Below are positions 1,357 to 60,501 of a stretch of 64,000 nt of DNA, in pieces (position 1 is the first letter of the stretch; every line of letters starts with the position of its first letter). The notes below the pieces were generated by a model. The model made no database searches. It was not told where the DNA came from and saw only the letters and a program-made list of their open reading frames with translations. Location of the stretch: NCBI GenBank assembly GCA_965279525.1, contig CBDIIB010000005.1, positions 1,407,018 through 1,471,017 of the forward strand, read 5' to 3'. The stretch comes from Tagaea sp. (GTDB lineage Bacteria; Pseudomonadota; Alphaproteobacteria; CACIAM-22H2). Both the position numbers and the translations under genes were made by a program.

Positions 1357-1446
1357 TGGCGGACAGGGTGAGATTCGAACTCACGATACCGTTGCCGGTA
1401 TTTCAGTTTTCGAGACTGACGCCTTCAGCCACTCGGCCACCTGTCC
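1357..1446 (-). tRNA. tRNA-Ser (anticodon CGA)
   Basis: The reverse complement folds as a class II tRNA: acceptor stem GGACAGG/CCTGTCC, D-loop AGTGGCTGAA, anticodon loop CTCGAAA (anticodon CGA), a long variable arm, T-loop GTTCGAATC, discriminator G and an encoded CCA. It is nearly identical in architecture to E. coli serU. Confidence 0.9.
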
Positions 1447-1517: not shown

Positions 1518-2561
1518 TCAGCCGGATCGGCCCGTTTGGCCGTCATCCGCCGCCCGGTCGCGGGCGATCTGGCGGGGATCGAGGCCGTTGCGTAGCGTCC
1601 ACAGGCCGGCGACTGCCAGCCCCGTCGCCAGCGTCAGCGCGTGGGTCAGGAGTGCGAACGCCAGGGCCGCCTCCGCCGGGACGGCAAAGAACGACAAGGC
1701 GAACACGATCGCCGCGTGGAAGAGGCCCACTCCGCCGGGGGCCGCAGGCACCAGGAATGCCATTGCCGCAATGCCGACGGTAAAGGCGCCGGTCGAAAGT
1801 CCGACATCCGGCCAGACGGCGCCGATGCCGAACGTGAACGACGTCGCCGTCACGGTCCAGATCGCTGCCGTCAGAAGGACGGCCCGCACCAGCACCGCCG
1901 GCCGGGCCAGGACCGAAAGGCCCGACAGCAAGGCATCGAGGCGCGGAAGGATCTTGCCGTGCCAGCGCAGGGGCAGGAGCCGGCCGACCAGCATCACCGC
2001 GACGCCGCGCAGCCGCACGGAAACCATCAGGATCCCCACGCCCAGCAGCACTGTCGCGGTGACGGCGGCGAGCCCTTCCACGACGGCTTGCGGGCGCGAA
2101 GGAAGAGCAAGGATCGCCACGCCGAGCAGGCAGATGGCGCCGGCAAGGTCGCACAGGCGATCGAGCACCACCGCCGACAGGGCATTGGCGACGGGCACGT
2201 GCGCGCGCCGGTTCAGCACCCACAGCATCGCGAATTCGCCCGCCCGCATTGGCAGCAGTCCGTTGAGCGCGTTGCCGAGCGCATGCGCGCCGAACGCGTC
2301 GTTGTAGCTGACCGATGTATGAGGCGCGGTTGCGGCGAGGAGCATGCGCATGCGCACCGGACGCAAGGCAAGCCAGCAAAGCCAGGTCGCGAGCATCGCG
2401 CCGATGCGCCACGGATCGGCGGTGACCAGCTCGTGGCCGACGCGTTCGAGATCGACGACGCGCACGAGAATGGTGACGGCAATCGCCGTGACCGGGACCC
2501 ACGCCCAGCGCAGGGCAAGACGGGACCATTTCCGGTCGGACGAATCGGCGGGACGGCTCAT
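1518..2561 (-). CDS. Integral membrane protein, UPF0104 / lysylphosphatidylglycerol-synthase TM-region (flippase-like) family
   Basis: The 347-aa protein has about 8 predicted hydrophobic helices, and its conserved N-terminal region resembles the flippase-like domain family. Confidence 0.5.
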   Translation of the reverse strand: MSRPADSSDRKWSRLALRWAWVPVTAIAVTILVRVVDLERVGHELVTADPWRIGAMLATWLCWLALRPVRMRMLLAATAPHTSVSYNDAFGAHALGNALNGLLPMRAGEFAMLWVLNRRAHVPVANALSAVVLDRLCDLAGAICLLGVAILALPSRPQAVVEGLAAVTATVLLGVGILMVSVRLRGVAVMLVGRLLPLRWHGKILPRLDALLSGLSVLARPAVLVRAVLLTAAIWTVTATSFTFGIGAVWPDVGLSTGAFTVGIAAMAFLVPAAPGGVGLFHAAIVFALSFFAVPAEAALAFALLTHALTLATGLAVAGLWTLRNGLDPRQIARDRAADDGQTGRSG

Positions 2562-2793
2562 GGTCCGGGCGGTTTAGCAGGGGCCTCCCGGCCCGTCACG
2601 CCAAAGCACTGGAATTCACGGAAAATTCCGACTTTTTACGCGGCGCCGGGCGCCGCTTGACAGGGCGGGCGCTGTAAGTATATTGCGCGCTCTTCGTCCG
2701 GGGGCCGGTTCGGCTTCCGCGGCGATCCTCATTTGTGGGTTTCCTCGGCTTTTCAAAGGTTTGAGGCCGAAAGGGACCCGGGGGTACAAGAAC

Positions 2794-3108
2794 ATGTACG
2801 CAGTCATTCGCACGGGCGGCAAGCAGTACAAGGTCGCCAAGAACGACGTCATCGTCGTCGAGAAGCTCGAAGCCGAGGCCGGCAAGACGGTCGAACTGGG
2901 CGACGTGCTGATGGTCACCGATGGCGCCAAGGCCACGCTGGGCAGCCCGACGATCAAGGGCGCCACGGTCACCGCCACCGTGCTCGCGCAGGGCAAGGGC
3001 GAGAAGATCATCGTCTTCAAGAAGCGCCGCCGCCAGAATTACCGCCGCAAGAACGGGCACCGCCAGCCCGAGACGACGCTGCGGATCGTCGACATCAAGG
3101 TCGCCTGA
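2794..3108 (+). CDS. rplU: 50S ribosomal protein L21
   Basis: [25 protein letters not shown] is a canonical L21 N-terminus. The start was chosen at the internal ATG at 2794 of ORF 2683-3108. Confidence 0.95.
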
Positions 3109-3120
3109 GGAGATCGCAGC

Positions 3121-5649
<2,529 letters not shown>

Positions 5650-5690
5650 TCGCCGGAACCCGCCGGACAGGATAGGATGCGACAAACGCG

Positions 5691-6986
5691 ATGAAGGCCC
5701 CCGCCGCGATGACTGATGCGACCGCCGATACGGAACTGAAGTCCGCGATCGAAGCGATGGGTGCTCGCGCCCGCGCCGCCGCCCGCCTGCTGGCCGTCGC
5801 ACCCGCCAAACGCAAGAGTGCCGCCCTGCGCGCCGCCGCCGACCGCTTGCGTGCCGCCACGCAGGACCTGCTCGACGCCAACGCCGCCGATGTCGCCTTC
5901 GCGGTCGATGCCGGCAACTCGGCTGCGATGGTCGACCGCACGCGCCTCGATCCCAAGCGCATCGACGCGATCGCGCGGGGGCTCGAGGATGTCGCGGCCC
6001 TTCCCGATCCGGTCGGCTCGATCCTGCAGGGCTGGACGCGTCCCAACGGCCTGCTCATCAGCCGCGTGGCCGTCCCCATCGGCGTGATCGGCATCATCTA
6101 TGAAGCGCGGCCCAACGTGACCGCCGACGCGGGCGCCTTGTGCATCAAGTCGGGCAACGCCGCGATCCTGCGCGGCGGGCAGGAGAGCTTCCTTTCTTCG
6201 CAGGTCATCGTCGCGGCGATCCGCGGTGCCCTTGCCGCACACGACCTGCCGGAGGACGCGATCCAGCTGATCCCCACGCGCGACCGTGCCGCCGTCGGGC
6301 ATCTGCTGGCCATGCACCAGCATGTCGACACGATCGTGCCGCGCGGCGGCCGGTCGCTGATCGAGCGCGTGATGAAGGAATCGCGCATCCCGGTGATCGC
6401 GCACCTGGAGGGGCTCTGCCATACCTATGTCCACGAATCGGCCGACATCGAGATGGCGCGAAAAGTGACGATGAACGCCAAGATGCGCCGCGTGTCGGTG
6501 TGCGGGGCGACCGAAACGCTGCTGATCGACCGGGCGGCGGCACCCACGCACCTGCCGGCGATCCTCGAAGATCTGTTTGCCGCTGGCTGCGAGATCCGCG
6601 GCGACGGCGACGTGCAGAAGCTCGACCGGCGCGTGGTGCCGGCCGTCGAGGCCGACTGGACGACCGAGTATCTCGACGCGATCCTCGCGGTGAAGATCGT
6701 CGACGGAATCGACGCGGCGATCGGGCACGTCAACACCTATGGCTCGCACCACACCGATGCGATCGTCGCGGGCGATCCGGCGGCGGCCGAGCAGTTCCTC
6801 GCGCGCGTCGATTCCGCGATCGTGCTGCACAACGCGTCGACCCAGTATGCCGATGGCGCCGAGTTCGGCTTCGGTGCCGAGATCGGCATTTCGACCGGTC
6901 GCCTGCCGCCGCGCGGGCCGGTGGGGGCCGAACAGCTCACGACCTACAAGTATGTCGTGCGCGGCGCTGGACAGACGCGGCCTTGA
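5691..6986 (+). CDS. proA: Gamma-glutamyl phosphate reductase
   Basis: The 431-aa protein belongs to the aldehyde dehydrogenase superfamily and sits in the conserved proB-proA order. An alternative start is possible at the second in-frame Met. Confidence 0.9.
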   Translation: MKAPAAMTDATADTELKSAIEAMGARARAAARLLAVAPAKRKSAALRAAADRLRAATQDLLDANAADVAFAVDAGNSAAMVDRTRLDPKRIDAIARGLEDVAALPDPVGSILQGWTRPNGLLISRVAVPIGVIGIIYEARPNVTADAGALCIKSGNAAILRGGQESFLSSQVIVAAIRGALAAHDLPEDAIQLIPTRDRAAVGHLLAMHQHVDTIVPRGGRSLIERVMKESRIPVIAHLEGLCHTYVHESADIEMARKVTMNAKMRRVSVCGATETLLIDRAAAPTHLPAILEDLFAAGCEIRGDGDVQKLDRRVVPAVEADWTTEYLDAILAVKIVDGIDAAIGHVNTYGSHHTDAIVAGDPAAAEQFLARVDSAIVLHNASTQYADGAEFGFGAEIGISTGRLPPRGPVGAEQLTTYKYVVRGAGQTRP

Positions 6987-7630
6987 TCGCACCACCGCTC
7001 CATCGTCTGGGCGTCGTACCCAAGCGCCGCATCGGCCTGTTCGGCGGTTCGTTCAATCCGGCCCATGAGGGGCACGCGCATATCGCGCGCGAGGCGCTGA
7101 AGCGGCTTGCCCTCGACGAAGTGTGGCTCCTCGTCAGCCCGCAGAATCCGCTGAAGGCCGAAGCGGGAATGGCGCCGCTGGACGCGCGCCTTGCAAGCAC
7201 GCTTGGCGTATGCGGGCGCGATCCGCGCCTGAAGGCCGTGGCGCTCGAAAGCTGGCTGGGGACGCGCTACACGGCCGATACGCTCGCCGCTTGCCGCCGG
7301 CGCTTCCGCCGCACGCAGTTCGTCTGGATCATGGGGGCCGACAATCTCGGCCAGATCCATCGCTGGGGAAGATGGTCATCGATCTTTCGCACGATGGTCA
7401 TTGCCGTGTTCGCACGACCAGCGTATTCTACCAAAGCATTGGCCGGAAAGGCGGCGCGGGCGTTTTCCACAGCCCGGGTCGGATCCCGACGGGTCCGACG
7501 CCTGGCAACACTCGAGCCGCCGGCCTGGACGTTCTTTCCCGTCCGGCTGCATCCGGCCTCTGCGACGCGCATCCGCGCCGTCCGCAAGGATTGGTTCGGC
7601 GGCGCGTCAGGTACCAGGTCCAACCAGTGA
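6983..7630 (+). CDS. nadD: Nicotinate-nucleotide adenylyltransferase
   Basis: RIGLFGGSFNPAHEGH is the (H/T)xGH nucleotidyltransferase motif. A non-ATG (TTG) start overlapping the proA stop is inferred, and the exact start is uncertain. Confidence 0.8.
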   Translation: MIAPPLHRLGVVPKRRIGLFGGSFNPAHEGHAHIAREALKRLALDEVWLLVSPQNPLKAEAGMAPLDARLASTLGVCGRDPRLKAVALESWLGTRYTADTLAACRRRFRRTQFVWIMGADNLGQIHRWGRWSSIFRTMVIAVFARPAYSTKALAGKAARAFSTARVGSRRVRRLATLEPPAWTFFPVRLHPASATRIRAVRKDWFGGASGTRSNQ

Positions 7631-8052
7631 GTTCGCACGGTTTACCGACTTTTTTCAGCCCCGGGAGACACGCGATCGCCACAGCAAAGCGCAAGACCGT
7701 ATCCGCGCCCAAAACGGTCCTCAAACTCGTCGAAAAAACGCTCGACGACGACAAGGCGACAGATCCCGTCGTCATCGACCTCGCCGGCAAGAGCTCGATG
7801 GCGGACTACATGATCGTCGCAAGCGGCCTTTCCAGCCGCCACATCCAGTCCATGGCCCAGCATGTCGTCGAGAAGCTGGAAGCCAAGGGCCTGAAGAGCA
7901 TCCGCATCGAGGGTGCCGACCAGGGCGACTGGGTGCTCATCGACGGCGGCGACATCGTCGTCCACCTGTTCCGACCCGAAGTGCGCGCCCTCTACGGCCT
8001 CGAAAAGATGTGGGCCGACAGCTGGGACGAACCGGCGGTCGCACAGGCCTGA
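7627..8052 (+). CDS. rsfS: Ribosome silencing factor RsfS (Iojap)
   Basis: The C-terminal 110 aa match the RsfS fold (DDDKATDPVVIDLAGKSSMADYMIVASG ... VLIDGGDIVVHLF). The GTG start overlapping the nadD stop as GTGA is inferred. Confidence 0.75.
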   Translation: MSSHGLPTFFSPGRHAIATAKRKTVSAPKTVLKLVEKTLDDDKATDPVVIDLAGKSSMADYMIVASGLSSRHIQSMAQHVVEKLEAKGLKSIRIEGADQGDWVLIDGGDIVVHLFRPEVRALYGLEKMWADSWDEPAVAQA

Positions 8053-8095
8053 GGAAAGGCGGCGCCCGCCGAAAAAGCGGGAGCCGGCGAAGCAG

Positions 8096-8569
8096 ATGCG
8101 GATTTTTGTGGTCGCGGCGGGACGCGCGCGCGGCACGCCCGAAGACGCGCTGTTCGCCGAGTATGCGAAGCGCCTGAAAACCGCCCCGGCCGGCATCGGC
8201 CCGCTCGAATGCCGGGAGATCGAAACGAAGTCGAAGACGCCGGCGGCCCGCAAGACCGAGGAAGCCGAGAAGCTGCGCGCCCAGATCCCCGACGGGGCGC
8301 TGATGGTCGTTCTCGATCCGCGCGGCAAGCCGCTTTCCACCGAGGAGTTCGCCCGACAGCTCGCACGATGGCGTGACGAGTCGACCGGCACGCTCGCTTT
8401 CGTCATCGGCGGCGCCGACGGGCTCGACGAATCGCTGGTCGGCGAAGCGCGCTTCCGGCTGTCGCTCGGATCGATGACCTGGCCCCACATGCTGGCCCGC
8501 GCGATGCTGGCCGAGCAGCTGTGGCGGGCCGCCTCGATCCTCGCCGGGCACCCCTACCACCGGGCTTAG
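8096..8569 (+). CDS. rlmH: 23S rRNA (pseudouridine1915-N3)-methyltransferase RlmH
   Basis: The SPOUT-class protein has motifs LAFVIGGADGL and MTWPHMLAR and sits in the conserved position after rsfS. Confidence 0.85.
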   Translation: MRIFVVAAGRARGTPEDALFAEYAKRLKTAPAGIGPLECREIETKSKTPAARKTEEAEKLRAQIPDGALMVVLDPRGKPLSTEEFARQLARWRDESTGTLAFVIGGADGLDESLVGEARFRLSLGSMTWPHMLARAMLAEQLWRAASILAGHPYHRA

Positions 8570-8664
8570 GCCGGCTGCACTTGATCCGGGGGGCGCCCTC
8601 CCGCCAATATCAACCAACATGCCCCGAGTCGGGCCATGCATTCCCGCGCGAAAGACCGGATTCA

Positions 8665-9639
8665 ATGGCGGCCAGACAAGCCAAAAAACCGCGCAGCACA
8701 GGGACGGATGCCGAGCGTCTCTATGCCGCCTTGCGGCGCATCCGGCGCGCCGAAGAGGAAGTCGCGCGCATCTACCCGTCCGACAAGATCAAGAGCCCGG
8801 TCCACCTGTCGATCGGCCAGGAGGGCGTTGCCGTCGGCGTGTGCGACCCGCTCGAGCCACGCGATGCGGTCTCCGGCACGTATCGTGGTCATGCCACGTA
8901 CCTAGCAAAAGGCGGTTCCCTGCCTGCGATGATGGCCGAGCTCTACGGCAAGGATACCGGGTGTGCGCGCGGCAAGGGCGGCTCGATGCACCTGATCGAC
9001 ATGAAGGCCAACGTGCTGGGAACATCCGCCGTCGTCGGCACGACCGTTCCGGTCGCGGTCGGCTATGCGATGGCGCAGAAGATGCGCGGCACGGGTGCCG
9101 TCGTCGCCTGCTTCATGGGCGACGGTGCCACCGAAGAAGGCTGCTTTCCCGAAAGCCTGAATTTCGCGGCACTCCATAAGCTCCCCGTCATCTTCGTTTG
9201 CGAGAATAACGGATTCGCGATCCACGAGCCGATCGCCAAGCGCCAGGCGACCGACCGGATCTGCGCGCGCGTCGCGACCTACGGCATTCCCACGAAGCGC
9301 TTCGCCGATTCCGACACGAAGGCGATCCGCGCCCATGTCGCCAAGGCGTTGCCGAAGATGCGCAAGGGCGGTGGGCCCATCTTCCTCGAATGCATGACCT
9401 GGCGCTGGCGCGAACATGTCGGGCCGGGCGAAGACTACGACGCCGGATTTCGCAGCCGCTCGATGCTGCTGAAATGGCAGAAGAAGGATCCCGTCGCCAT
9501 CGCGGCGCGGGCCCTGACGGCCGCCGTGCGCGCGAAGATCGATGCGGCGGTGGAGGCCGAGGTCGCGGCCGCCGTGAAGTTCGCCGAAGAGTCGCCGTTC
9601 CCCGCCGTCCAGGAGCTGGTCACCGATGTCTTCGCATAA
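8665..9639 (+). CDS. Thiamine-diphosphate-dependent dehydrogenase E1 component, alpha subunit (pyruvate/acetoin dehydrogenase E1alpha-like)
   Basis: The TPP-binding motif GDGATEEG sits in a typical E1alpha context (HLSIGQEGVAVGV ... YRGHATYLAKG ... CENNGFAI). There is no adjacent E2 or E3 gene. Confidence 0.85.
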   Translation: MAARQAKKPRSTGTDAERLYAALRRIRRAEEEVARIYPSDKIKSPVHLSIGQEGVAVGVCDPLEPRDAVSGTYRGHATYLAKGGSLPAMMAELYGKDTGCARGKGGSMHLIDMKANVLGTSAVVGTTVPVAVGYAMAQKMRGTGAVVACFMGDGATEEGCFPESLNFAALHKLPVIFVCENNGFAIHEPIAKRQATDRICARVATYGIPTKRFADSDTKAIRAHVAKALPKMRKGGGPIFLECMTWRWREHVGPGEDYDAGFRSRSMLLKWQKKDPVAIAARALTAAVRAKIDAAVEAEVAAAVKFAEESPFPAVQELVTDVFA

Positions 9640-10717
9640 GCTCGTCTGGCCGGGGCGCATGGAAGACGGGCGGCGCGTGCTGCGCTATGTCGACGCGCTG
9701 TCCGAGGCCGTGGCGCTGGAGATGGCGCGCGATCCGGGCGTGTTCGTGTTCGGCCTCGATGTCGACGATCACAAGGCGATCCAGGGTTCCACGCGCGGCC
9801 TGCTCGAGAAGTTCGGCGCCGGGCGCGTCTTCACCACGCCGCTTTCGGAAGACGCGATGACGGGTGTCGCCATCGGTGCCGCCATGGCGGGCATGCGGCC
9901 GATCCATGTGCATATCCGCATGGACTTCCTGATGCTGTGCATGAACCAGCTCGTCAACATCGCGGCCAAGGCCCGCTACATGTACGGCGGCCAGGTGAAG
10001 GTGCCGCTGGTCGTCCGCTCGATCATCGGCAAATCGTGGGGGCAGGGCGCCCAGCACAGCCAGGGCCTGCATTCGATGTTCATGCATGTGCCCGGGCTCA
10101 AGGTCTGCGCGCCTTCGAACGCGCACGATGCCAAGGGTGCGATGATCGCCGCGATCCGCGACGACAATCCGGTCGTGTTCGTCGAGCATCGACTTCTCTA
10201 TGCGACCGAGGCGTTCGTCGCCGAAGGCGCCTATGTCGTGCCGCCCGGCCGTTCGCGCGTGTGCCGCTGGGGCCGCGACGTGACCGTCGTGGGCATCTCC
10301 AACATGGTCGTCGAGGCGCTGCGCGCCGCCGAGCTCCTGAAGGAAGCCGGCGTGTCGGCGGAGGTAATCGACCCGATCTGGCTGTCGCCGCTCGACAGCG
10401 ACACGATCGTCGAAAGCGTGCGGCGCACGCGCAAGCTGCTGATCGTCGACAACGGCTGGAACATGTGCGGTGCGGGTGCGGAGATCGCCGCGCGCGTCGC
10501 CGAAGCCTGCGGGGACCTGCAAGTGACGATCCGCCGGATGGGCTTCTCGCCCACGCCGTGCCCGCCCTCGCCGATCCTCGAAGCGGCGTTCTATCCCAAC
10601 CCCGCCACGATCGCGGCCGAAGCGCATGCGCTGGCACGTCCCGGCGCGGCCGCGTGGGCGCCCGATCCATCGAGCGCGCAGCTCGCCTATCAGCTCCAGT
10701 TCAAGGGCCCGTTCTGA
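9626..10717 (+). CDS. TPP-dependent dehydrogenase E1 component, beta subunit (transketolase-like), with a roughly 35-aa C-terminal extension
   Basis: E1beta motifs are present (VFGLDVDD ... GSTRGLLEKFG ... TPLSEDAMTGVAIGAAMAGMRP). It overlaps the E1alpha stop by 14 nt. Confidence 0.85.
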   Translation: MSSHKLVWPGRMEDGRRVLRYVDALSEAVALEMARDPGVFVFGLDVDDHKAIQGSTRGLLEKFGAGRVFTTPLSEDAMTGVAIGAAMAGMRPIHVHIRMDFLMLCMNQLVNIAAKARYMYGGQVKVPLVVRSIIGKSWGQGAQHSQGLHSMFMHVPGLKVCAPSNAHDAKGAMIAAIRDDNPVVFVEHRLLYATEAFVAEGAYVVPPGRSRVCRWGRDVTVVGISNMVVEALRAAELLKEAGVSAEVIDPIWLSPLDSDTIVESVRRTRKLLIVDNGWNMCGAGAEIAARVAEACGDLQVTIRRMGFSPTPCPPSPILEAAFYPNPATIAAEAHALARPGAAAWAPDPSSAQLAYQLQFKGPF

Positions 10718-11892
10718 TGTTCTACGAACTCGCGACCCCCTCGTGGGGACAGGAGGAGATCGACGCCCTCCAGTCCGTCATCGCGTCCGGCCGCTTCACG
10801 ATGGGCGAAAGGGTCGCCGCGATGGAAGCGGCGTTTGCCGCCTATCACGGCAAGAAATATGGGGTGATGGTCAATTCCGGTTCGTCGGCGAACCTGATCT
10901 GCATCGCGGCACTCGCCTATCATTCGTCGCGGCCACTGGCGCGCGGCGACGAGGTGATCGTGCCGGCGATCTCGTGGAGCACGACCTATCATCCGCTTCA
11001 GCAGTACGGGCTCAAATGCCGGTTCGTCGACGTCGAGCTCGAGACGCTCAACATGGACGTCTCGAAGCTCGAGCAGGCGCTGACGCCCAAGACCAAGGCG
11101 CTGCTCGCCGTCTCGATCCTGGGCAACCCGGCCAAGCTCGACGAAATGCGCGCCTTCTGCGACCGGCACGGCCTGTGGTTCATGGAAGACAACTGCGAAT
11201 CCATGGATGCGGTCCTGCCCTCGGGCCGCAAGGCCGGCACGCTCGGCGATCTCAACACGTTCAGCTTCTTCTTCTCGCACCACATTTCGACGATGGAAGG
11301 CGGGATGGTGCTGACGGACGATCTCGAGCTCTACCATCTGCTCAAATGCATGCGCGCGCACGGCTGGACGCGCGACATCCCGCCGGACTCGCCGCTGTTC
11401 AAGCGCACCGCCAGCGACCATTTCGAGGCCTACCGCTTCCTGTTCCCGGGCTACAACGTCCGCCCGCTGGAGATGGAGGCGGCCGTCGGCATCGAGCAGC
11501 TCAAGAAGCTGCCGGCGATGACCGCGGCCCGGCGCAAGAACCTTGCGCTGTTCCAGAAGCATTTCTCGGGCGACGAGAATTTCATCATCCAGAAGGAGCA
11601 CGGGCAGAGCTCGTCCTTCTGCTTCACGCTGATCCTCAATCCGAAGAAGGATCTCGATCGCGAGAAGATCTTCGCGACGCTGAAACAGGCCGACATCGGC
11701 TTCCGGATCATCACCGGCGGCTGCTTCCTGCGCCACGACACGATCAAATACTACGATTACGACATCGTCGGAAACGGCGTGCCGAATGCCGAGCTGGCGC
11801 ACGACCGCGGCTTCTTCGTCGGCAACCATCCGCAGGACCTGAGCGTCCAGATCGAGACGCTGCGCAAGGTGCTGGACGGCGCAGTGCGCTGA
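10717..11892 (+). CDS. DegT/DnrJ/EryC1/StrS-family nucleotide-sugar 3-dehydrase (ColD/DdhC-like, PMP-dependent)
   Basis: The protein has the aminotransferase class V fold. In the SF(H)xxK..EGG motif the PLP-lysine position is occupied by His (FFFSHHISTMEGG), the hallmark of 4-keto-6-deoxy-sugar 3-dehydrases. At about 391 aa it lacks a C-terminal Fe-S Cys cluster, so it is ColD-like. Its ATG overlaps the E1beta stop. Confidence 0.75.
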   Translation: MFYELATPSWGQEEIDALQSVIASGRFTMGERVAAMEAAFAAYHGKKYGVMVNSGSSANLICIAALAYHSSRPLARGDEVIVPAISWSTTYHPLQQYGLKCRFVDVELETLNMDVSKLEQALTPKTKALLAVSILGNPAKLDEMRAFCDRHGLWFMEDNCESMDAVLPSGRKAGTLGDLNTFSFFFSHHISTMEGGMVLTDDLELYHLLKCMRAHGWTRDIPPDSPLFKRTASDHFEAYRFLFPGYNVRPLEMEAAVGIEQLKKLPAMTAARRKNLALFQKHFSGDENFIIQKEHGQSSSFCFTLILNPKKDLDREKIFATLKQADIGFRIITGGCFLRHDTIKYYDYDIVGNGVPNAELAHDRGFFVGNHPQDLSVQIETLRKVLDGAVR

Positions 11893-11893
11893 G

Positions 11894-12898
11894 CTAGCGG
11901 CTCTCCGTCAGGTCCGGCTCGTAGACGACGATGCGGCTGCCGTCCGCACCCGTCTTCACGTCGACCTCGATCAGGTCCTTGAGACGCTCGCGGATCGCGG
12001 CGCGCTTTTCCGGCGGTGCCACGAACGCGATGAATCCGCCGCCGCCGGCCCCCAGCAGCTTGCCGCCGACCGCCCCTGCCGCGATTCCCGCCTCGTAGAT
12101 CTGGTCGATCGTCGAGGTCGACACGCCTTCGGCAAGCTCCTTCTTCAGGCGCCAGCCGTCATGCATCAGCGCGCCGAGATCGAGCATCTGCCGGCCGGGG
12201 CTGGAGATGATCGCCTCGGCCTCGTCGACCATCTCGCGCATGCGATGCAGGTTCTTCTCCTTGGCACCCATGTTGGCGATCTGCTTGCTCGCCATCGCCA
12301 TCGCGTAGCGCGACAGGCCGGTGAAGAACAGCATCAGTGAGCCCTCGAGTTCCTCGCGCCGGGCCAGCGTCAGGATCAGCGGCTTGACCGAGAAGCTGCC
12401 ATCGATGCGGAAATCGATCCGGTTGAGACCGCCATAGGCCGCCCAGACCTGGTCCTGGCTGCCGACCGGTTCGCGGATGACGTGCTGCTCGATGCGGATC
12501 GCCTCTTCGGCGAGTTTGTGCTTCGAGATCATCTGGCCGCGGAGCGCATAGAGCGCGTTGAGCAGGCCGACCGTGAAAGCGGACGACGAGCCCAGACCCG
12601 AACGCGCCGGAAGGTCGCCGTCATGATGGATCTCCAGACCGCGCCGCTCCTTCTGGTCGAGCAGGACGGCCCGCACGGCCGGGTGCTCGATCTCGAGCAG
12701 GTCGTTGACCAGCTCGATGCGCGACCACACCACCCGATAGCGGTGCTCGAAGAACGGCGGAAGACGGCGCAGCGAGATGTTGCAGTACTTGTCGATCGCC
12801 GTGCCGATCACGGCGCCGCCATGCTGCAGGTACCATTTCGGGTAATCGGTGCCGCCGCCGAAGAAGGAGAGGCGGTACGGGGTGCGCGAGATGATCAC
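11894..12898 (-). CDS. GHMP-family sugar kinase (HddA / D-glycero-D-manno-heptose-7-phosphate-kinase-like)
   Basis: The GHMP motif DLPARSGLGSSSAFTVGLLNAL (PxGSGLGSSAA) is present. The N-terminus MIISRTPYRLSFFGGGTDYP is typical of the HddA/fucokinase clade, and there is a C-terminal GHMP_C domain. Confidence 0.7.
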   Translation of the reverse strand: MIISRTPYRLSFFGGGTDYPKWYLQHGGAVIGTAIDKYCNISLRRLPPFFEHRYRVVWSRIELVNDLLEIEHPAVRAVLLDQKERRGLEIHHDGDLPARSGLGSSSAFTVGLLNALYALRGQMISKHKLAEEAIRIEQHVIREPVGSQDQVWAAYGGLNRIDFRIDGSFSVKPLILTLARREELEGSLMLFFTGLSRYAMAMASKQIANMGAKEKNLHRMREMVDEAEAIISSPGRQMLDLGALMHDGWRLKKELAEGVSTSTIDQIYEAGIAAGAVGGKLLGAGGGGFIAFVAPPEKRAAIRERLKDLIEVDVKTGADGSRIVVYEPDLTESR

Positions 12899-13015: not shown

Positions 13016-13960
13016 ATGGCGGGCAAGACGCGCGTTCTGATTACCGGCGGTGCAGGCTATCTGGGCTCCACGCTGACACCGGCCCTGCTCGATGCCGGCT
13101 ACGCCGTGACGGTGCTCGACAGTTTCATGTTCAGGCAGATGCCGCTGGCCCATGTCTGCGCGCATCCGGATTTCGACGTCGCGCGCGGCGATGCCCGCGA
13201 CGAATCGGTCCTGAAGCCGCTTGTCGCGAAGGCCGACGCCGTCATCCCGCTTGCGGCACTGGTCGGCGCACCGCTGTGCAACGCCGACAAGCTGGGCGCC
13301 GAGTCGATCAATCGCGATGCGGTCAAGACGCTGCTGAAGCTGATGTCCCCGTCCCAGCGCGTGCTGATGCCGGTGACGAATTCCGGCTACGGCGTGGGCG
13401 AGAAGGGCAAGGAATGCACGGAAGACAGTCCGCTGCGGCCGATCTCGCTCTACGGGCGCACCAAGGTCGAGGCGGAGGAAGCGGTCCTCGCGCGCGGCAA
13501 CGCGATCTCGTTCCGGCTCGCGACCGTCTTCGGGATGAGTCCGCGCATGCGCATCGACCTGCTGGTCAACGATTTCGTGCACCGCGCCGTGACCGACCGT
13601 GCCGTCGTCCTGTTCGAGCCGCATTTCAAGCGCAACTATGTCCACGTGCGCGACGTGGCGAACGCCTTCATGCACGGCCTCTCGAAGTTCGATACGATGA
13701 AGGACCGTCCCTACAATGTCGGTCTTTCGGACGCGAACATCTCGAAATGGGAGCTGTGCGAACGGATCGCCAGGCACGTGCCCGGCTTCGTGTTCATCGA
13801 AGCGCCGATCGGCGAAGACCCGGACAAGCGCGACTATATCGTCTCGAATGCACGCATCGAGGCGACGGGCTTCAAGCCGAAATTCTCGCTCGATGACGGC
13901 ATCGTCGAGCTGATGAAGGGCTTCCGGATGATCCGCAACTCGGTCTACGGGAACGTATGA
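13016..13960 (+). CDS. NAD(P)-dependent epimerase/dehydratase-fold nucleotide-sugar reductase or epimerase (extended SDR)
   Basis: It has a Rossmann motif VLITGGAGYLGS and a YGRTK catalytic YxxxK. It lacks the TDE motif of 4,6-dehydratases, so a 4-keto reductase or epimerase is more likely. Confidence 0.7.
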   Translation: MAGKTRVLITGGAGYLGSTLTPALLDAGYAVTVLDSFMFRQMPLAHVCAHPDFDVARGDARDESVLKPLVAKADAVIPLAALVGAPLCNADKLGAESINRDAVKTLLKLMSPSQRVLMPVTNSGYGVGEKGKECTEDSPLRPISLYGRTKVEAEEAVLARGNAISFRLATVFGMSPRMRIDLLVNDFVHRAVTDRAVVLFEPHFKRNYVHVRDVANAFMHGLSKFDTMKDRPYNVGLSDANISKWELCERIARHVPGFVFIEAPIGEDPDKRDYIVSNARIEATGFKPKFSLDDGIVELMKGFRMIRNSVYGNV

Positions 13961-14490
13961 ACGTCGTCGATCTCGATCTGCCGGGCGTGAAGCTGGTCGA
14001 GCCGAAGGTCTTCGGCGACCCGCGCGGCCAGTTCCTCGAGACGTGGAATGCCGGGCGCTACGCGGCCGCCGGGATTCCGGGGCCGTTCGTGCAGGACAAC
14101 CTGTCGCGCTCGCGCCGGAACACGGTTCGCGGGCTGCACTGGCAGGACCCCAATCCGCAGGGCAAGCTCGTGTCGGTCGTCGCCGGTGCGGTCTGGGATG
14201 TGGTGGTCGACATCCGCCGCGACAGCGCGGCGTACGGGAAATGGTACGGCGTCGAGCTTTCGGCCGAGAACCGCCGGCAGCTCTGGGTGCCCGCCGGCCT
14301 TGCGCACGGCTTTGCCGTGCTCAGCGATTTCGCCGATTTCACGTACAAGGTCACCGGCCCCTACAGCCCGAAGGACGAACACGTGCTGCGCTGGAACGAT
14401 CCGGAAATCGGCATCGACTGGAAGATCGATCCGGCGGCTGCGATACTGTCCGAGCGCGACGCGACCGCATCGGGGCTTGCAGGCATATGA
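13957..14490 (+). CDS. rfbC: dTDP-4-dehydrorhamnose 3,5-epimerase
   Basis: RmlC cupin motifs are present (FGDPRGQFLETW ... RGLHWQ ... KLVSVVAGAVWDVVVDIR ... LWVPAGLAHGF). Confidence 0.9.
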   Translation: MNVVDLDLPGVKLVEPKVFGDPRGQFLETWNAGRYAAAGIPGPFVQDNLSRSRRNTVRGLHWQDPNPQGKLVSVVAGAVWDVVVDIRRDSAAYGKWYGVELSAENRRQLWVPAGLAHGFAVLSDFADFTYKVTGPYSPKDEHVLRWNDPEIGIDWKIDPAAAILSERDATASGLAGI

Positions 14491-15368
14491 ACGAGAGATT
14501 GGGCATCTTGCTGGCGGGCGGGGCAGGCACGCGCCTGCATCCTTCGACCCTCGCCACGTCGAAGCAGCTGCTGCCCGTCTACGACAAGCCAATGGTCTAC
14601 TACCCGCTGTCGACGCTGATGCTCGCGGGTATCCGGAAAGTGCTGCTGATTTCCACGCCGGTCGACATTCCAGGCTTCAAGCGCCTGTTCGGCGACGGGA
14701 AGGCGTGGGGCATCGATATTTCGTACGCCGAACAGCCCAAGCCCGAGGGAATCGCGCAGGCCTACCTGATCGCGGAGACCTATCTTGCCGGCCGTCCGTC
14801 GGCGCTGATACTCGGTGACAACATCTTCTATGGCGAAGGCCTGTCGCGCCGACTGCAGGCCGTCGCCGGCCGCGGCGACCCGGGGGCAAGCGTGTTCGCC
14901 TATACGGTTTCCGATCCCGAACGCTATGGCGTGATCGAGCTGGACGGTTCCGGAAAGCCGACGGGACTGGTCGAAAAGCCGGCCAGCCCGCGCTCGAATC
15001 TCGCCGTCACCGGACTCTATTTCTACGACGGCGACGCCTCGCGCAGGACGCGCGGTCTGCGGCCGAGTGCGCGCGGCGAACTCGAGATCACCGATCTGAA
15101 CCGGTCCTATCTGGACGACGGCCTCCTGACTGTCGAGACGCTGCGCCGCGGCAATGCCTGGCTCGATACCGGCACGCAGGACTCGCTCCTCGACGCGTCG
15201 AACTTCATCGCTGCGGTCGAACGCCGGCAGGGCCTCAAGATCGGCTGCCCGGAAGAGATCGCCTGGCGGCAGGGCTGGATCGACGATGCGGCCCTTGCGC
15301 GGCTCGCCGAGCCGCTGCGCAAGAGCGGCTATGGCGAGTATCTGCTGCGGCTGATCGGCAGGCGCTGA
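14487..15368 (+). CDS. rfbA: Glucose-1-phosphate thymidylyltransferase
   Basis: GILLAGGAGTRLHPSTLATSKQLLPVYDKPMVYYPLSTLMLAGI is a canonical RmlA N-terminus. Its ATG overlaps the rfbC stop as ATGA. Confidence 0.9.
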   Translation: MNERLGILLAGGAGTRLHPSTLATSKQLLPVYDKPMVYYPLSTLMLAGIRKVLLISTPVDIPGFKRLFGDGKAWGIDISYAEQPKPEGIAQAYLIAETYLAGRPSALILGDNIFYGEGLSRRLQAVAGRGDPGASVFAYTVSDPERYGVIELDGSGKPTGLVEKPASPRSNLAVTGLYFYDGDASRRTRGLRPSARGELEITDLNRSYLDDGLLTVETLRRGNAWLDTGTQDSLLDASNFIAAVERRQGLKIGCPEEIAWRQGWIDDAALARLAEPLRKSGYGEYLLRLIGRR

Positions 15369-15371
15369 GCC

Positions 15372-16427
15372 ATGCGGTCCATCCTCGTCACCGGCGGCTG
15401 CGGTTTCATCGGATCGGCATTCCTGCGCCACGTCGTGGGGCAGGGGCTTGCCCGGGCGGTCAATGTCGACAAGCTGACCTACGCCGCCAATCCCGATGCG
15501 GTCGCCGCACTCGCGGGCGGTGACTATGCTTTCGTGCAGGCCGATATCGGCGACAGGGACGCGATGCGCGCGGCATTCGCGAAGTACCGCCCGGAGGCCG
15601 TCGTGAATTTCGCGGCCGAGACGCATGTCGACCGCTCCATCGACGGACCGCTCGCCTTCGTGGAGACCAACGTCGCGGCGACCGCCCGCCTCCTCGTCGA
15701 GGCGCACGCCTACTGGCGGAGCCTGGATGGAACGGCGCGCGACGCGTTCCGCTTCCTGCACGTGTCGACCGATGAAGTCTTCGGGTCGCTCGACGCCGAC
15801 GATCCGCCCTTCACCGAGACGTCCGCCTACGCGCCGAATTCGCCCTATGCCGCGACGAAGGCTGCGTCCGACCATCTCGTGCGCGCGTGGAACCGGACCT
15901 ACGGCCTGCCCGTCCTCGTCACCAACTGCTCGAACAATTACGGGCCCTGGCAGTTCCCCGAGAAACTCATCCCGCTGATGATCGCCAAGGCGCGCGCTGG
16001 CGAGAAGCTGCCGGTCTACGGCGCCGGGACCAACGTGCGCGACTGGCTGCATGTCGAAGACCACGCGGCCGGACTATGGCTCGCCCTGACGCGCGGCAGG
16101 CCCGGCGAGACCTACGGCTTCGGCGGCGGGAGCGAGGTCGCAAACATCGATGTCGTCCACGCGATCTGCGATACGCTCGATTCGCGTCTGGGAATTCTGG
16201 CTGGCGGCCCGCGCCGGCGTCACGTCGAGTACGTGTCGGACCGACCGGGCCATGATTTCCGGTATGCGATCGATGCTGGAAAGGCGGCGGCAGAACTCGG
16301 CTGGCGTCCGGGCCGCGACTTCGCCACCGGTCTCGCCGCGACCGTCGACTGGTATCTTGCCAACGCCGCATGGGTCGATTCGATCCGCAGCCGCCTCTAC
16401 GCGCTCGAGCGCCTCGGAACGGGATGA
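15372..16427 (+). CDS. rfbB: dTDP-glucose 4,6-dehydratase
   Basis: The RmlB signature is present: ILVTGGCGFIGSAF, HVSTDEVFG and YAATKAASDHLVRAW. Confidence 0.9.
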   Translation: MRSILVTGGCGFIGSAFLRHVVGQGLARAVNVDKLTYAANPDAVAALAGGDYAFVQADIGDRDAMRAAFAKYRPEAVVNFAAETHVDRSIDGPLAFVETNVAATARLLVEAHAYWRSLDGTARDAFRFLHVSTDEVFGSLDADDPPFTETSAYAPNSPYAATKAASDHLVRAWNRTYGLPVLVTNCSNNYGPWQFPEKLIPLMIAKARAGEKLPVYGAGTNVRDWLHVEDHAAGLWLALTRGRPGETYGFGGGSEVANIDVVHAICDTLDSRLGILAGGPRRRHVEYVSDRPGHDFRYAIDAGKAAAELGWRPGRDFATGLAATVDWYLANAAWVDSIRSRLYALERLGTG

Positions 16428-17323
16428 TGCCGGTCGTCCTCGTGTTCGGCGCCGGCGGCCAGGTCGGCCGGGCGCTCGTCGAAGCAGGCCCGGCGCACGG
16501 CTGGACCGTGCGCGGCCTTGCACGCGACGCGGTCGACATCTGCGATGCCGCTTCGGTGAAGGCGGCCGTGGCCGCGACTGCGCCGGATGCCATCGTCAAC
16601 GCCGCCGCGTATACCGCCGTCGACAAGGCGGAAGCGGACGCCGAACAGGCGCAGCGCGTGAATGGCGAGGCACCCGGCACGATCGCGACGGCCGCCGCCG
16701 CCGCCGGCGTGCCCTTCGTGCATCTGTCGACCGACTACGTGTTCGACGGCACGTCGCGCGTTCCCTACAAGGAAGCCGATCCGGTCGGGCCGCCTTGTGT
16801 TTACGGGCGCACGAAGCGCGCCGGCGAGATCGCGGCCTACAAGGCCGGCGGGCGCAGCGTCATCTTGCGCACGTCGTGGGTCTTCGCGCCGTGGGGCGTC
16901 AATTTCGTGCGCACGATGCTGCACCATGCCGCCCTCAAGCCCGAACTGCGCGTCGTCGACGATCAGCGTGGCGGACCCACGCCGGCAACCGAGATCGCCG
17001 CGACAATCCTGAAGATCCTGCCGCGCCTGGCCGGCGAGGACGGCGCCAGCCGCACCGGGCTGTTCCACTATCAGGGTCGTCCGCCGGTCACCTGGGCGGC
17101 ATTCGCAGACGCGATCCTCGACGAAGGGGCGCTGCTCGGCCATCCGCGCCCGCCGGTCGTACGCATCGCGACATCGGACTGGCCGACGGCGGCAGCGCGT
17201 CCGGCCAACAGCGTGCTCGATTGCGCGCGCATCGCGCGCGATTACGACATCACTCCACCCGACTGGCGGCCGGCCCTGTCGCGGGCGGTGCGCGAGATCC
17301 TGTCGGAAGCGAAGGCCGGCTGA
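16424..17323 (+). CDS. rfbD: dTDP-4-dehydrorhamnose reductase
   Basis: The RmlD-like motifs VLVFGAGGQVGRAL and YGRTKRAGE are present. Its ATG overlaps the rfbB stop. Confidence 0.85.
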   Translation: MMPVVLVFGAGGQVGRALVEAGPAHGWTVRGLARDAVDICDAASVKAAVAATAPDAIVNAAAYTAVDKAEADAEQAQRVNGEAPGTIATAAAAAGVPFVHLSTDYVFDGTSRVPYKEADPVGPPCVYGRTKRAGEIAAYKAGGRSVILRTSWVFAPWGVNFVRTMLHHAALKPELRVVDDQRGGPTPATEIAATILKILPRLAGEDGASRTGLFHYQGRPPVTWAAFADAILDEGALLGHPRPPVVRIATSDWPTAAARPANSVLDCARIARDYDITPPDWRPALSRAVREILSEAKAG

Positions 17324-17327
17324 ACGC

Positions 17328-19235
17328 TCAGGCCGGCCGGTATTCCGGCACAAGGGCCCGCATTGCGGCGAGCGTGCCGGCGGCATCGCCACTGCGAGCC
17401 AGCATCTCGATCCGTGCCAGTTCCGTGCGAAGGGCCTCGAGTTCGGCGGCGCGCGAACGGGCGACCTTGATGCCGGCGATCGCGGTCGCCGTCGCCTGTT
17501 CTTCGGTATGGAACAGTTCCTCGAAAAGTTTCTCGCCGGGCCGCAGGCCGGTGAAAGCGACGGCGATGTCGATGTCCGGACGCTTGCCGGCGAGGCGGAT
17601 CATGCGCCGCGCCAGGTCCTGGATGCGGACAGGCTCGCCCATCTCGAGAACGAGGATGCCGCCGCGCGGGCCGGCGCTGCCGGACGTCGCGAGCACGCTT
17701 GCCTGCAGGACGAGCTCGACCGCCTCGCGGATCGTCATGAAATAGCGCACGACGTCCGGATGCGTGACCGTCAGCGGGCCGCCGCTCGCGAGCTGGCGCT
17801 GGAACAGGGGCACGACCGAACCGGACGAGCCGAGCACGTTGCCGAATCGTACCGTCACGAAGCGCGTGGCGCCTCCGGCGGCATCGAGGGTCTGGCACAG
17901 CATCTCGGCAATCCGCTTGCTGGCCCCCAGCACATTGGTCGGATTGACCGCCTTGTCGGTCGAGATGAGGACGACGGCCTGCACGTCCGCGGCGATCGCG
18001 GCGTCCGCGACATTGCGGGTTCCGACGGCATTGGTGAGTGCGCCTTCAGACGGGTTCGCCTCGAGGAGCGGGACGTGCTTGAGCGCTGCCGCGTGGAAGA
18101 CGATCTCCGGCCGGTGGGCCGACATCAGGCCTGCCAGCCGTCCGGCATCGCGGATGTCGGCGATCGCGGCTTCGCGCCGCAGGTTCGGCCAGCCTTCCTC
18201 GACTTCGCGGTCGATCGCATAGAGCTGGTATTCGGAGTTGTCGAGCAACACGAGGATCGCCGGATCGCGTGCCGCGATCTGGCGCACGAGCTCGGCGCCG
18301 ATGCTCCCGCCGGCACCCGTCACCAGCACGCGCCGTCCGCGCACGAGCCGGTCCATCGACTCGCGGTCGAGCACGGTCTGCGGCCGCCCGAGCAGGTCCT
18401 CGATCGCGATCGGGTTGACCTCGAGCGCCGCATCCGCCGAATTGCCGCCCGACAGCGCGTTGATGCGCGGCAGCCGCACGGCGGTCATGCCGCAGCGGTC
18501 GGCAAGATCGACGAGCGCGCTCAGCGCCTCGCCGTCGAGCTGGGGTGTCGCGATGACGAGACGCTGCGGACGAAGGCCGCGCTTCTTGAGGTCGGCGACG
18601 ATCGTCTCCAGCGCCTCGGGTGCACCGAGGACTTCGGTCCCGCCCATGCGTCGCCCCTGCCGGCGCGCGGCCTCATCGAGGATTCCCACGACGAAATAGG
18701 GAGCACGGCGGCGGCGGCGGTTGGCCTGCAGGAAAAGCTCTGCCCCGTCGTTGGCACCGACGATCAGCACCTGGACCTGGTCTTCGCGCGGGCCACCGAA
18801 CGTCAGGTCGAGCCGCCCCTCGCGCACGCTGCGATAGAGCAGGCGAGGTCCGATCAACAGCGCGAAAAGGACGAACCAATTGATCAGCAAGGCAGCGCGC
18901 GGAATCCCCGCAAGCCGCGACCACAGGAACATCGCAGGAAGGAACAGCAGGATCGCCAGCGTGACGGAGCGCGCGACCAGCACCATGTCGTCGATCGCGA
19001 CATAGCGCCACACGCCGCGTGGCAGTCCCGTCCAGTGGAACGCGACGGCGGAAGCAAGGGCGAACGTGATCGTGCCGCCGATCAGCAGGTCGTTCGAATA
19101 TTGCGTCAGTTCGTCGCCGACGCGCAGATAGAGCGCGATCTGGAACGACATCACCGCCATGAAGATGTCGTGGACCAGCGAGAGCGTGACGCGGTCGAAA
19201 CGCTGGATGAAGCGGGTCAGTCCGTTCGTGGCCAT
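17328..19235 (-). CDS. Membrane-anchored polysaccharide biosynthesis protein, CapD/WbpM/PglF family (UDP-GlcNAc 4,6-dehydratase-like)
   Basis: Four N-terminal TM helices precede a Rossmann domain (VLVTGAGGSIGAEL) and a catalytic region (ISTDKAVNPTNVLGASKRIAE). The start was chosen at internal Met 19235 to avoid overlap with the upstream gene. Confidence 0.8.
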   Translation of the reverse strand: MATNGLTRFIQRFDRVTLSLVHDIFMAVMSFQIALYLRVGDELTQYSNDLLIGGTITFALASAVAFHWTGLPRGVWRYVAIDDMVLVARSVTLAILLFLPAMFLWSRLAGIPRAALLINWFVLFALLIGPRLLYRSVREGRLDLTFGGPREDQVQVLIVGANDGAELFLQANRRRRRAPYFVVGILDEAARRQGRRMGGTEVLGAPEALETIVADLKKRGLRPQRLVIATPQLDGEALSALVDLADRCGMTAVRLPRINALSGGNSADAALEVNPIAIEDLLGRPQTVLDRESMDRLVRGRRVLVTGAGGSIGAELVRQIAARDPAILVLLDNSEYQLYAIDREVEEGWPNLRREAAIADIRDAGRLAGLMSAHRPEIVFHAAALKHVPLLEANPSEGALTNAVGTRNVADAAIAADVQAVVLISTDKAVNPTNVLGASKRIAEMLCQTLDAAGGATRFVTVRFGNVLGSSGSVVPLFQRQLASGGPLTVTHPDVVRYFMTIREAVELVLQASVLATSGSAGPRGGILVLEMGEPVRIQDLARRMIRLAGKRPDIDIAVAFTGLRPGEKLFEELFHTEEQATATAIAGIKVARSRAAELEALRTELARIEMLARSGDAAGTLAAMRALVPEYRPA

Positions 19236-60001: not shown

Positions 60002-60501
60002 TCTCCGTCGCGTGCGCGGGCGGCGCCCAGGGCTGCGAGTGCCGCAAGACCAAGGGCCGCGAAGAAATTGTAGCCTGCCATCGACAGGCCGAACAGCGTC
60101 CAGGCCGGCTCGTCGCAGCGCACGACGGGTGCGCTGAGCAGGCGCGCGCGCAGTTCCTCGAGGCTAGCCGATGCAGGCCTTGTCCCGCCGCATTCGGATG
60201 TCCCTTCCCACCATTTGGACTCGACCCCGACATGGAAGGCGGCGATGCCGGCATCGACGACGAGGCACGCGGCTGCCAGCGCCAGCAGGGCCGCGGCGAG
60301 GCGCCGGTTGGAGCCGGCGACGAGTGCTGCGACGAGGGCGAGCGGGATCGCTGCCCAGTAGGGATAGCGCTGCCAGTAGCACAGCACGCATGGTGCGAGC
60401 CCGCCCAGATGCTGGAAGGCGAGAGCGGTGCCGAGCACGGCGGCACTGCCGAGGGCGACGGCGGCGGCAAGCGTGCGGGCGGGCAGGTCGGGGACGATCA
60501 T
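59998..60501 (-). CDS. dsbB: Disulfide bond formation protein B
   Basis: CVLCYWQRYPYW is a DsbB first-periplasmic-loop Cys pair, and the protein has 4 TM helices. The start is at internal Met 60501, which avoids running antisense through tRNA-Leu, and the gene overlaps the coq7 start as ATGA. Confidence 0.75.
   Translation of the reverse strand: MIVPDLPARTLAAAVALGSAAVLGTALAFQHLGGLAPCVLCYWQRYPYWAAIPLALVAALVAGSNRRLAAALLALAAACLVVDAGIAAFHVGVESKWWEGTSECGGTRPASASLEELRARLLSAPVVRCDEPAWTLFGLSMAGYNFFAALGLAALAALGAARARDGD

Follow-up and report, generated by a model that had tools for sequence, protein, structure and literature searches.

What does a DegT-family protein do when histidine stands in place of the lysine that binds pyridoxal 5'-phosphate (PLP), and which sugar pathway does it serve? 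The question is raised by the gene at positions 10717-11892 of a 64-kb stretch of DNA from Tagaea sp. (Rhodospirillales; G+C content about 67%), which in its whole length is referred to as the window. A sequence-only reading had assigned the product to the ColD-like 3-dehydrases that work with pyridoxamine 5'-phosphate (PMP). The family, the catalytic Ser-His motif, the absence of iron-sulfur (Fe-S) ligands and the linkage to a conserved set of genes are established by the comparisons reported here. Taking these together with the neighboring genes, we consider it reasonably probable that the protein is a ColD-type PMP-dependent 3-dehydratase acting on a guanosine diphosphate (GDP)-linked 4-keto-heptose, and that its product is then two-carbon-branched at C4 by a thiamine diphosphate (ThDP) enzyme encoded by the gene pair directly upstream. 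Coordinates of the features are given in Table 1.

The assignment depends on the start of the gene and on the alignment register. The gene starts with the ATG at 10717; a longer in-frame open reading frame (ORF) begins at a GTG at 9937, and this start was rejected because the extension overlaps the upstream E1-beta gene and is absent from all homologues. Orthologues begin MFYEL..., and the resulting translation has 391 residues, in agreement with the earlier estimate of about 391. His188 (CAC, 11278-11280) lies six positions before Glu194 within SFFFSHHISTMEGG, and occupies the column of ColD His188 and of the PLP lysine of sugar aminotransferases, which is where the sequence-only reading had placed it. 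In the HMMER alignment, the residue altered in the ColD variants 3b8x (Asn) and 2r0t (Lys) lies opposite the first His of SHHI, and variant 3gr9 has Asn-Lys at the preceding Ser and the aligned His (FSHH in the query, YSHH in ColD and YNKH in 3gr9). We take 3b8x, 2r0t and 3gr9 to be the H188N, H188K and S187N/H188K variants of ColD. Because these deposited variants differ exactly at the aligned positions, the register is fixed independently of reading by eye. A study from the Holden laboratory is said to have found that turning ColD into an aminotransferase requires changing both Ser187 and His188.

The same column was inspected in a MAFFT alignment of 76 sequences, comprising the window protein, ColD, E1, the second DegT protein of the window and 72 relatives from other genomes. 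His was found in 75 of them, including all 72 relatives, ColD and E1, and is therefore a conserved family trait and no chance feature. Lys occurs only in the second DegT protein, which reads SFYATKNVTCGEGG and has PseC and ArnB as its top NCBIfam models; the contrast between the two genes drawn by the sequence-only reading thus falls in one and the same column, and alignment with ColD and E1 puts His188, and no Lys, in register with the PLP lysine. The Ser-His pair is retained in the window protein and in all 72 relatives. That a Lys-to-His swap marks the 3-dehydratases is established knowledge, as had been assumed; the His abstracts the C4' proton of PMP and expels the 3-OH (PMC8987622). ColD hydrolyzes the enamine and regenerates PMP with glutamate, and E1 and SpnQ require Fe-S clusters and reductases (PMC8987622).

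Within the His-bearing enzymes, the window protein groups with ColD and not with E1/DdhC. In phmmer searches against PDB sequences, the top match was ColD (2gms, E 8.4e-116, query 3-386 to chain 6-389), E1/DdhC (3bcx) was far weaker (E 1.4e-46), and sugar aminotransferases (ArnB, perosamine synthase, PseC-like) ranked after E1 (E 1e-35 or weaker). Identity in the MAFFT alignment was 49% to ColD and 32% to E1. The DegT/DnrJ/EryC1 (aspartate aminotransferase type I) fold was recognized over residues 11-372 (PF01041, E 1.6e-77), and no NCBIfam equivalog model scored above its cutoff for the protein, with RfbH at 258 bits (cutoff 423). In E1 (3bcx), the cysteine-rich stretch RDCYCAPGCDNTCKKR lies in a mid-protein loop and aligns to WTRDIPPDSPLFKRT in the window protein and to WTRNLPKKNKV in ColD, neither of which contains Cys. 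The E1 stretch CYCAPGCDNTC is presumably part of the E1 [2Fe-2S] site. The sequence-only reading had argued from the lack of a C-terminal Cys cluster; its conclusion that Fe-S ligands are missing holds, but the location does not, since the cysteines of E1 are found in mid-protein. No E3-type, FNR or ferredoxin-type reductase was found among the about 60 window ORFs scanned with Pfam. Two arginines (WTR and gfR) are conserved between the window protein and ColD in the phmmer alignment, and are presumably the equivalents of ColD Arg219 and Arg331, which we take to grip the GDP pyrophosphate. The higher identity to ColD, the retained Ser-His pair, the lack of Cys and the lack of a reductase among the scanned window ORFs all agree with the earlier proposal, and the enzyme is predicted to be ColD-like, PMP-dependent and independent of an E3 reductase.

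The wider family was examined in a neighborhood survey of 79 loci, one genome per species, among which 72 loci with a ColD-like protein of at least 59% identity form what is here called the cassette clade (19 Tagaea-type loci and 53 others). Proteins of this clade are 60-99% identical to one another and 45-55% identical to ColD. In two further loci, L070 and L072, the dehydratase shares 63-64% identity with ColD and the gene directly upstream is Fcl/ColC-like, an arrangement that we read as colitose-type, and the heptose 3-dehydratases of Campylobacter jejuni are 62-67% identical to ColD (PMC10440746). The lower identity of the cassette clade places the window protein in a distinct sister clade of ColD; judged from its sequence, it is a member of a sister clade of the known ColD-type 3-dehydratases and ordinary as an enzyme.

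What is less ordinary is its company. The two genes upstream encode subunits resembling E1-alpha and E1-beta of pyruvate dehydrogenase (PDH). For the alpha subunit, the ATG near 8665 is the probable start as judged from orthologues, that of locus L011 beginning MAAKKAN..., and the translation contains the ThDP motif GDG-X26-NN. It scored 289 bits against TIGR03182, below the cutoff of 394, and is thus regarded as a paralogue and not as housekeeping PDH. The beta subunit has PDH E1-beta chains as its best PDB matches (E about 3e-62), a conserved TPLSE glutamate, and an NCBIfam score of 298 bits versus the cutoff of 321 for genuine PDH. The two subunits are 63% (alpha) and 76% (beta) identical to the cassette E1 subunits of L001, a locus of Azospirillum doebereinerae. 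In the sequence TGATG, the E1-beta stop codon TGA (10715-10717) overlaps the dehydratase ATG (10717-10719), which suggests translational coupling of the two genes. PDH-E1-like pairs place two-carbon branches on 4-ketosugars, as has been established genetically for avilamycin and paulomycin (PMC4425429), and YerE and ErwE carry out two-carbon branching on cytidine diphosphate (CDP)-3,6-dideoxy-4-keto-glucose (PMC9306805).

Downstream, the kinase gene is convergent with the dehydratase gene, with 1 nucleotide between the stop codons. Its PDB matches are 4usk/4usm, a putative sugar kinase that we take to be WcbL, and 4n3o (E 1e-36 to 1e-30), and it is 61% identical to the cassette kinase of L001. 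Divergent from the kinase lies the gene for a short-chain dehydrogenase/reductase (SDR), which heads a tightly spaced same-strand run with rmlC, rmlA, rmlB and rmlD. The PDB entries matched by the SDR, 6vo6 and 6vo8, were deposited as "putative sugar-nucleotide epimerase/dehydratase". The 6vo6 chain shares 96% identity with a C. jejuni protein cluster of 313 aa, the gene of which is flanked by rfbC-like and fcl-like genes at one end and by hddA, gmhA2, hddC and kps genes at the other. Since the C. jejuni source and the capsule-locus neighbors match the position of Cj1427, we identify 6vo6 as Cj1427, with which the window SDR shares 56.5% identity over 308 residues. Cj1427 is the C. jejuni GDP-heptose C4-dehydrogenase, and uses alpha-ketoglutarate (PMC10680097, PMC7949155).

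These genes form a cassette that recurs across distant bacteria. The window carries all four parts (ThDP pair, dehydratase, SDR and kinase), 61-79% identical to those of L001. Among the 72 loci of the cassette clade, a ThDP pair is present in 66 (60 of PDH-E1 type, 6 of split transketolase), a Cj1427-like SDR in 62 and an HddA-like kinase in 53, and many loci lacking some part lie on short contigs. In 55 of 59 cassette loci, the gene immediately upstream of the dehydratase is that for E1-beta. The hosts belong to the Alpha-, Beta-, Gamma- and Deltaproteobacteria, Acidobacteria, Nitrospirota and Chlamydiae (Simkania), together with a candidate division WWE3 bin; homologues at 70-76% identity are numerous in Azospirillum, Magnetospirillum and Kiloniellales, and one locus (L005) is 99% identical to the window at the protein level. 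In six loci (L002, L042, L045, L050, L054 and L067; e.g. L042 240-2977), the PDH-E1 pair is replaced by the N- and C-terminal halves of a split transketolase. As these occupy the position of the E1 pair, two-carbon transfer by a ThDP enzyme appears to be an integral step. In five of the six (all but L002), a D-2-hydroxyacid dehydrogenase gene follows directly, and its product could supply a hydroxypyruvate donor, giving a glycolyl and not an acetyl branch.

Outside Tagaea, the cassette is often larger. A B12-binding radical S-adenosylmethionine (SAM) protein of roughly 500 aa is encoded in 26 of the 53 loci, and a small nucleotidyltransferase, with mannose-1-phosphate guanylyltransferase and HddC as best NCBIfam models, in 32. 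Some of these loci also encode GmhA, GmhB, an Fcl-like reductase (453 bits with the GDP-fucose synthase model) and a Nudix hydrolase. Such ManC/HddC-like, GmhA, GmhB, Fcl-like and Nudix genes are typical of GDP-sugar and heptose pathways, and therefore support a pathway of this kind. The radical SAM and ManC/HddC-like genes are absent within 10 kb in all 19 Tagaea-type loci and from the 64-kb window. The Nudix hydrolase, of about 192 aa, stands inside the cassette in 10 loci (L022 7281-7862 and nine others) and recalls the GDP-mannose mannosyl hydrolase of GDP-sugar clusters.

The surroundings of the cassette vary. In other Tagaea genomes (regions L008 11173-12084, L011 13216-14085 and L008 16522-17580), a GT2 glycosyltransferase gene is inserted between dehydratase and kinase and an extra SDR gene between the kinase and the Cj1427-like gene, and near one Tagaea cassette is a multi-span membrane ORF that was taken, from its translation alone, as a Wzm-type ABC-2 permease. 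The Tagaea cassette thus sits in a variable locus, possibly one for an ABC-transporter-dependent polysaccharide. In A. doebereinerae L001, the flanks (2305-9886, 17974-18615) encode a 677-aa tetratricopeptide repeat protein, a 1580-aa protein without Pfam domains and a PseG-like half-protein, a hint that in this species the glycan is made for another target, possibly flagellin, than in the O-antigen-like setting of Tagaea.

From this context we infer which substrate the pathway uses, in what order its steps follow and what it makes. Linkage of the clade to the ThDP pair, the C4-dehydrogenase and the kinase, and not to gmd or colC, points to a 4-keto-heptose that retains its 6-OH as the probable substrate. 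The sequence-only reading had left the choice between a GDP- and a CDP-4-keto-6-deoxyhexose; gene context instead favors GDP-4-keto-heptose. The HddA-like kinase would supply the heptose and the Cj1427-like SDR would oxidize GDP-heptose at C4. By analogy with ColD, PMP would condense with the GDP-4-keto sugar at its C4 keto group to form a Schiff base, His188 would take the C4' proton of PMP so that the 3-OH is expelled, and hydrolysis of the enamine would yield a 3-deoxy-4-keto sugar and ammonia. L-Glutamate would return PLP to PMP, with neither an Fe-S cluster nor an E3 reductase, and this half-reaction from glutamate to alpha-ketoglutarate could feed the alpha-ketoglutarate-dependent recycling of the reduced nicotinamide cofactor NADH by the Cj1427-like enzyme. 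[quoted passage not shown] In its widest form, the proposal makes the dehydratase the C3-deoxygenase of an undescribed, widespread GDP-heptose pathway to a branched 3-deoxyheptose (a C9 sugar), which we put forward only tentatively.

Several points weigh against this pathway. A ManC/HddC-like gene, gmhA and gmhB are missing within reach of the cassette in the window and in each of the 19 Tagaea-type loci, so that GDP is a putative nucleotide carrier of the heptose in this organism. The kinase matches HddA at the family level only (best NCBIfam model, 120 bits versus a cutoff of 600; 29% identity to C. jejuni HddA). In Tagaea, rmlCABD follows directly 3' of the Cj1427-like gene, which makes a deoxythymidine diphosphate (dTDP)-hexose substrate possible. 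The function of the cassette clade is predicted from sequence and gene context, and the identity of the product is speculative. Finally, where the point is made explicit, the E1-like enzymes of paulomycin and avilamycin are proposed to act after glycosyl transfer and not on a nucleotide sugar (PMC4425429).

The radical SAM protein of the larger cassettes (L001 12207-13760 and 25 other loci) has HpnJ (169 bits) and BchE (142 bits) as its best models, both far below cutoffs; these are ring-forming enzymes and not C-methyltransferases. As its closest named families form rings, it might, in most lineages beyond Tagaea, act after the branching step and join C7 to the branch carbonyl, so that a carbocyclic sugar of the caryose type results, which we regard as a long shot. 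Caryose is a 4,8-cyclo-3,9-dideoxy-nonose; the likeness would lie in 7 + 2 carbons, a 3-deoxy position and a tertiary C4. The Tagaea version, having no radical SAM enzyme, would end at the open 3-deoxy-4-C-acetyl or 1-hydroxyethyl heptose. Bradyrhizose (C10 = 7+2+1) was set aside as a product, because it is not known to be a 3-deoxy sugar and a ColD-type step would be idle. Erwiniose and caryophyllose were likewise rejected as heptose-derived products, since they come from CDP-3,6-dideoxy-4-keto-hexose and long alpha-keto acids via YerE-like enzymes, a different ThDP family (PMC9306805). A search with the Burkholderiales cassette radical SAM protein gave, as its best 120 matches, only sequences from uncultured Beta-/Burkholderiales (75-92% identity), and Trinickia (Burkholderia) caryophylli was not among them. 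On caryose itself, the literature searched yielded reviews only.

Other readings of the dehydratase were weighed against the heptose-branching pathway. ColD is its closest solved and characterized relative, and both the catalytic Ser-His pair and the arginines that we take to bind GDP are conserved; the protein could on these grounds be a bona fide ColD of a colitose-type pathway from GDP-4-keto-6-deoxy-D-mannose to a 3,6-dideoxyhexose. We find this unlikely, because gmd, colC and manC are absent among the scanned ORFs of the window, because the identity to ColD is 49% only, as against 63-64% for the enzymes of L070 and L072 with their upstream Fcl/ColC-like gene and 62-67% for the C. jejuni heptose enzymes, and because the clade is almost always linked to the ThDP pair and the Cj1427-like SDR. 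A little more credible, if still improbable, is that the substrate is dTDP- or CDP-4-keto-6-deoxy-D-glucose made through rmlA/rmlB or RfbF, and that the E1 pair turns the product into a yersiniose-like 3,6-dideoxy-4-C-branched hexose. There is a precedent in yersiniose, where a ThDP enzyme acts on a 3,6-dideoxy-4-keto sugar (PMC9306805). In the window, rmlC, rmlA, rmlB and rmlD follow the SDR gene in the same direction, separated by small gaps or overlapping (13016-17323), a glucose-1-phosphate cytidylyltransferase is encoded further on, and an HddC-like gene is missing. However, the rml linkage is confined to Tagaea, and the 53 other loci have ManC/HddC-like, GmhA/GmhB, Fcl-like and Nudix genes instead. 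In a route through a 4,6-dehydratase, moreover, neither the conserved kinase nor the conserved Cj1427-like C4-dehydrogenase would be needed, the scanned window ORFs include no CDP-glucose 4,6-dehydratase, and the closest characterized relatives of the dehydratase all use GDP-sugars.

Given its DegT fold, the protein might also be a sugar 4-aminotransferase, or a transaminase supplying an amino sugar, despite the His. Such a role is hardly credible: the Ser-His pair is kept here and in the 72 relatives, whereas variant 3gr9 and what is reported of ColD imply that both residues must change, and a normal Lys-bearing DegT gene is present elsewhere in the locus. The His-bearing relative SpnQ does transaminate without its reductase, but ColD and E1 show no transamination under the same conditions (PMC8987622).

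The heptose-branching pathway can also be set beside systems already described. With ColD (E. coli O55/Y. pseudotuberculosis; 2gms, 3b8x, 2r0t, 3gr9) the window enzyme shares a length of about 390 aa, Ser187-His188 and the lack of Fe-S cysteines, and the expected chemistry would be equal, with PMP regenerated by glutamate and no reductase. In contrast to ColD, its clade is never found beside gmd or colC, but with a ThDP pair, a Cj1427-like C4-dehydrogenase and an HddA-like kinase, and its probable substrate is a 4-keto-heptose with a 6-OH where that of ColD is a 6-deoxyhexose. E1/DdhC (CDP-6-deoxy-L-threo-D-glycero-4-hexulose 3-dehydrase; 3bcx, working with E3) and SpnQ likewise have His for the PLP lysine and carry out PMP-dependent C3 deoxygenation; the window protein differs from E1 by the 32% identity, by lacking its cysteine-rich stretch and by having no E3/ferredoxin-reductase partner in the window. 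[quoted passage not shown] Compared by description only, the Campylobacter enzymes act after a 4,6-dehydratase and before a C5-epimerase and a C4-reductase, whereas the window dehydratase is apparently preceded by a C4-dehydrogenase and followed by a ThDP carboligase. In the systems of AviB1/AviB2 for avilamycin, Pau11/Pau12 for paulomycin and YerE/ErwE for yersiniose and erwiniose, an acyl carbanion equivalent is transferred by a ThDP enzyme onto the ketone at C4 of a (3-)deoxy-4-keto sugar. For avilamycin and paulomycin this enzyme is a PDH-E1 alpha/beta pair, as in the window; YerE differs in being an acetolactate-synthase-type flavoprotein. These branching systems, unlike the pathway proposed here, use dTDP- or CDP-hexoses or already-attached sugars, and belong to actinomycete antibiotics or enterobacterial O-antigens. 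In the literature searched, from which most subscription journals were outside coverage, we found no description of a ThDP/ColD-like/Cj1427-like cassette, which is weak evidence of novelty, and no example of heptose-based or ColD-coupled two-carbon branching.

Beyond the cassette, the window holds other sugar genes and some unrelated features. Housekeeping genes (obg, proA, rsfS, rlmH) lie upstream of the E1 pair. The rml genes, which adjoin the cassette in Tagaea only and are outside its conserved part, scored 229 (rmlC, cutoff 156), 441 (rmlA, 361), 430 (rmlB, 365) and 280 bits (rmlD, 224) with NCBIfam models. Beyond them follow genes for a WbpM/PglF-like dehydratase, a TviB-like dehydrogenase and the Lys-bearing DegT protein. 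The cytidylyltransferase gene stands alone; next come an NTF2-like ORF and a gene for a GNAT protein. Among the scanned ORFs there was also no hddC, gmhA or gmhB, and tblastn of the cassette B12-binding radical SAM protein, nucleotidyltransferase, GmhA and GmhB against the window gave only weak matches to rmlA and rfbF. At 46000-47600, the G+C content drops to 0.47-0.51, compared with about 0.67 in the background; this island contains a single 454-aa ORF (46104-47468, minus strand) with hydrophobic segments and no assigned family, sits between the genes for an inositol monophosphatase and a 3-hydroxyacyl-CoA dehydrogenase, and has the look of a foreign insertion. At the gathering threshold, Rfam matches in the window are limited to two transfer RNA genes, at 1360-1446 (minus strand) and 60603-60685 (plus strand). 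The latter falls inside an ORF scanned as PAS_5 (60428-61303), which makes that ORF call doubtful.

Table 1. Features of the Tagaea sp. window discussed in the text, with the basis of each assignment
Feature	Position	Strand	Basis
PDH-E1-alpha-like ThDP subunit	8665-9639	+	PF00676 E1_dh, E 4e-60; GTG-started ORF 8521-9639
PDH-E1-beta-like ThDP subunit	9626-10717	+	PF02779 and PF02780
ColD-family PMP-dependent nucleotide-sugar 3-dehydratase (predicted)	10717-11892	+	391 aa; full-length match to ColD 2gms, PF01041
Active-site motif SFFFSHHISTMEGG, residues 183-196	11263-11304	+	Ser187-His188 in place of aminotransferase Asn/Thr-Lys
HddA/WcbL-like GHMP sugar kinase, probable D-glycero-D-manno-heptose 7-phosphate kinase	11894-12898	-	PF00288 and PF08544
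Cj1427-like SDR, 314 aa	13016-13960	+	PDB 6vo6/6vo8, E 5e-114
rmlC, rmlA, rmlB, rmlD (dTDP-L-rhamnose)	13957-17323	+	NCBIfam equivalogs above cutoffs
Second DegT protein, true sugar aminotransferase with normal PLP lysine (SFYATKNV), internal control	22575-23702	-	PF01041, E 2e-91
Glucose-1-phosphate cytidylyltransferase (RfbF/DdhA type)	25025-25819	+	TIGR02623, 333 bits, cutoff 300

The His-for-Lys signature by itself re-identifies a textbook enzyme type, although it does show that the NCBI label of "aminotransferase" (DegT-family) is functionally misleading for the whole clade. The main value of the locus lies in its conserved context, in which a ColD-type dehydratase is combined with a Cj1427-type C4-dehydrogenase and a PDH-E1-type carboligase. 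A heptose-branching pathway of this kind appears to be undescribed so far. If the proposal is true, the cassette would represent a third genetic route to C-branched sugars, would give carbocyclic or higher-carbon sugars of bacteria an origin that can be tested, and would provide enzymes for the chemo-enzymatic synthesis of rare heptose derivatives.

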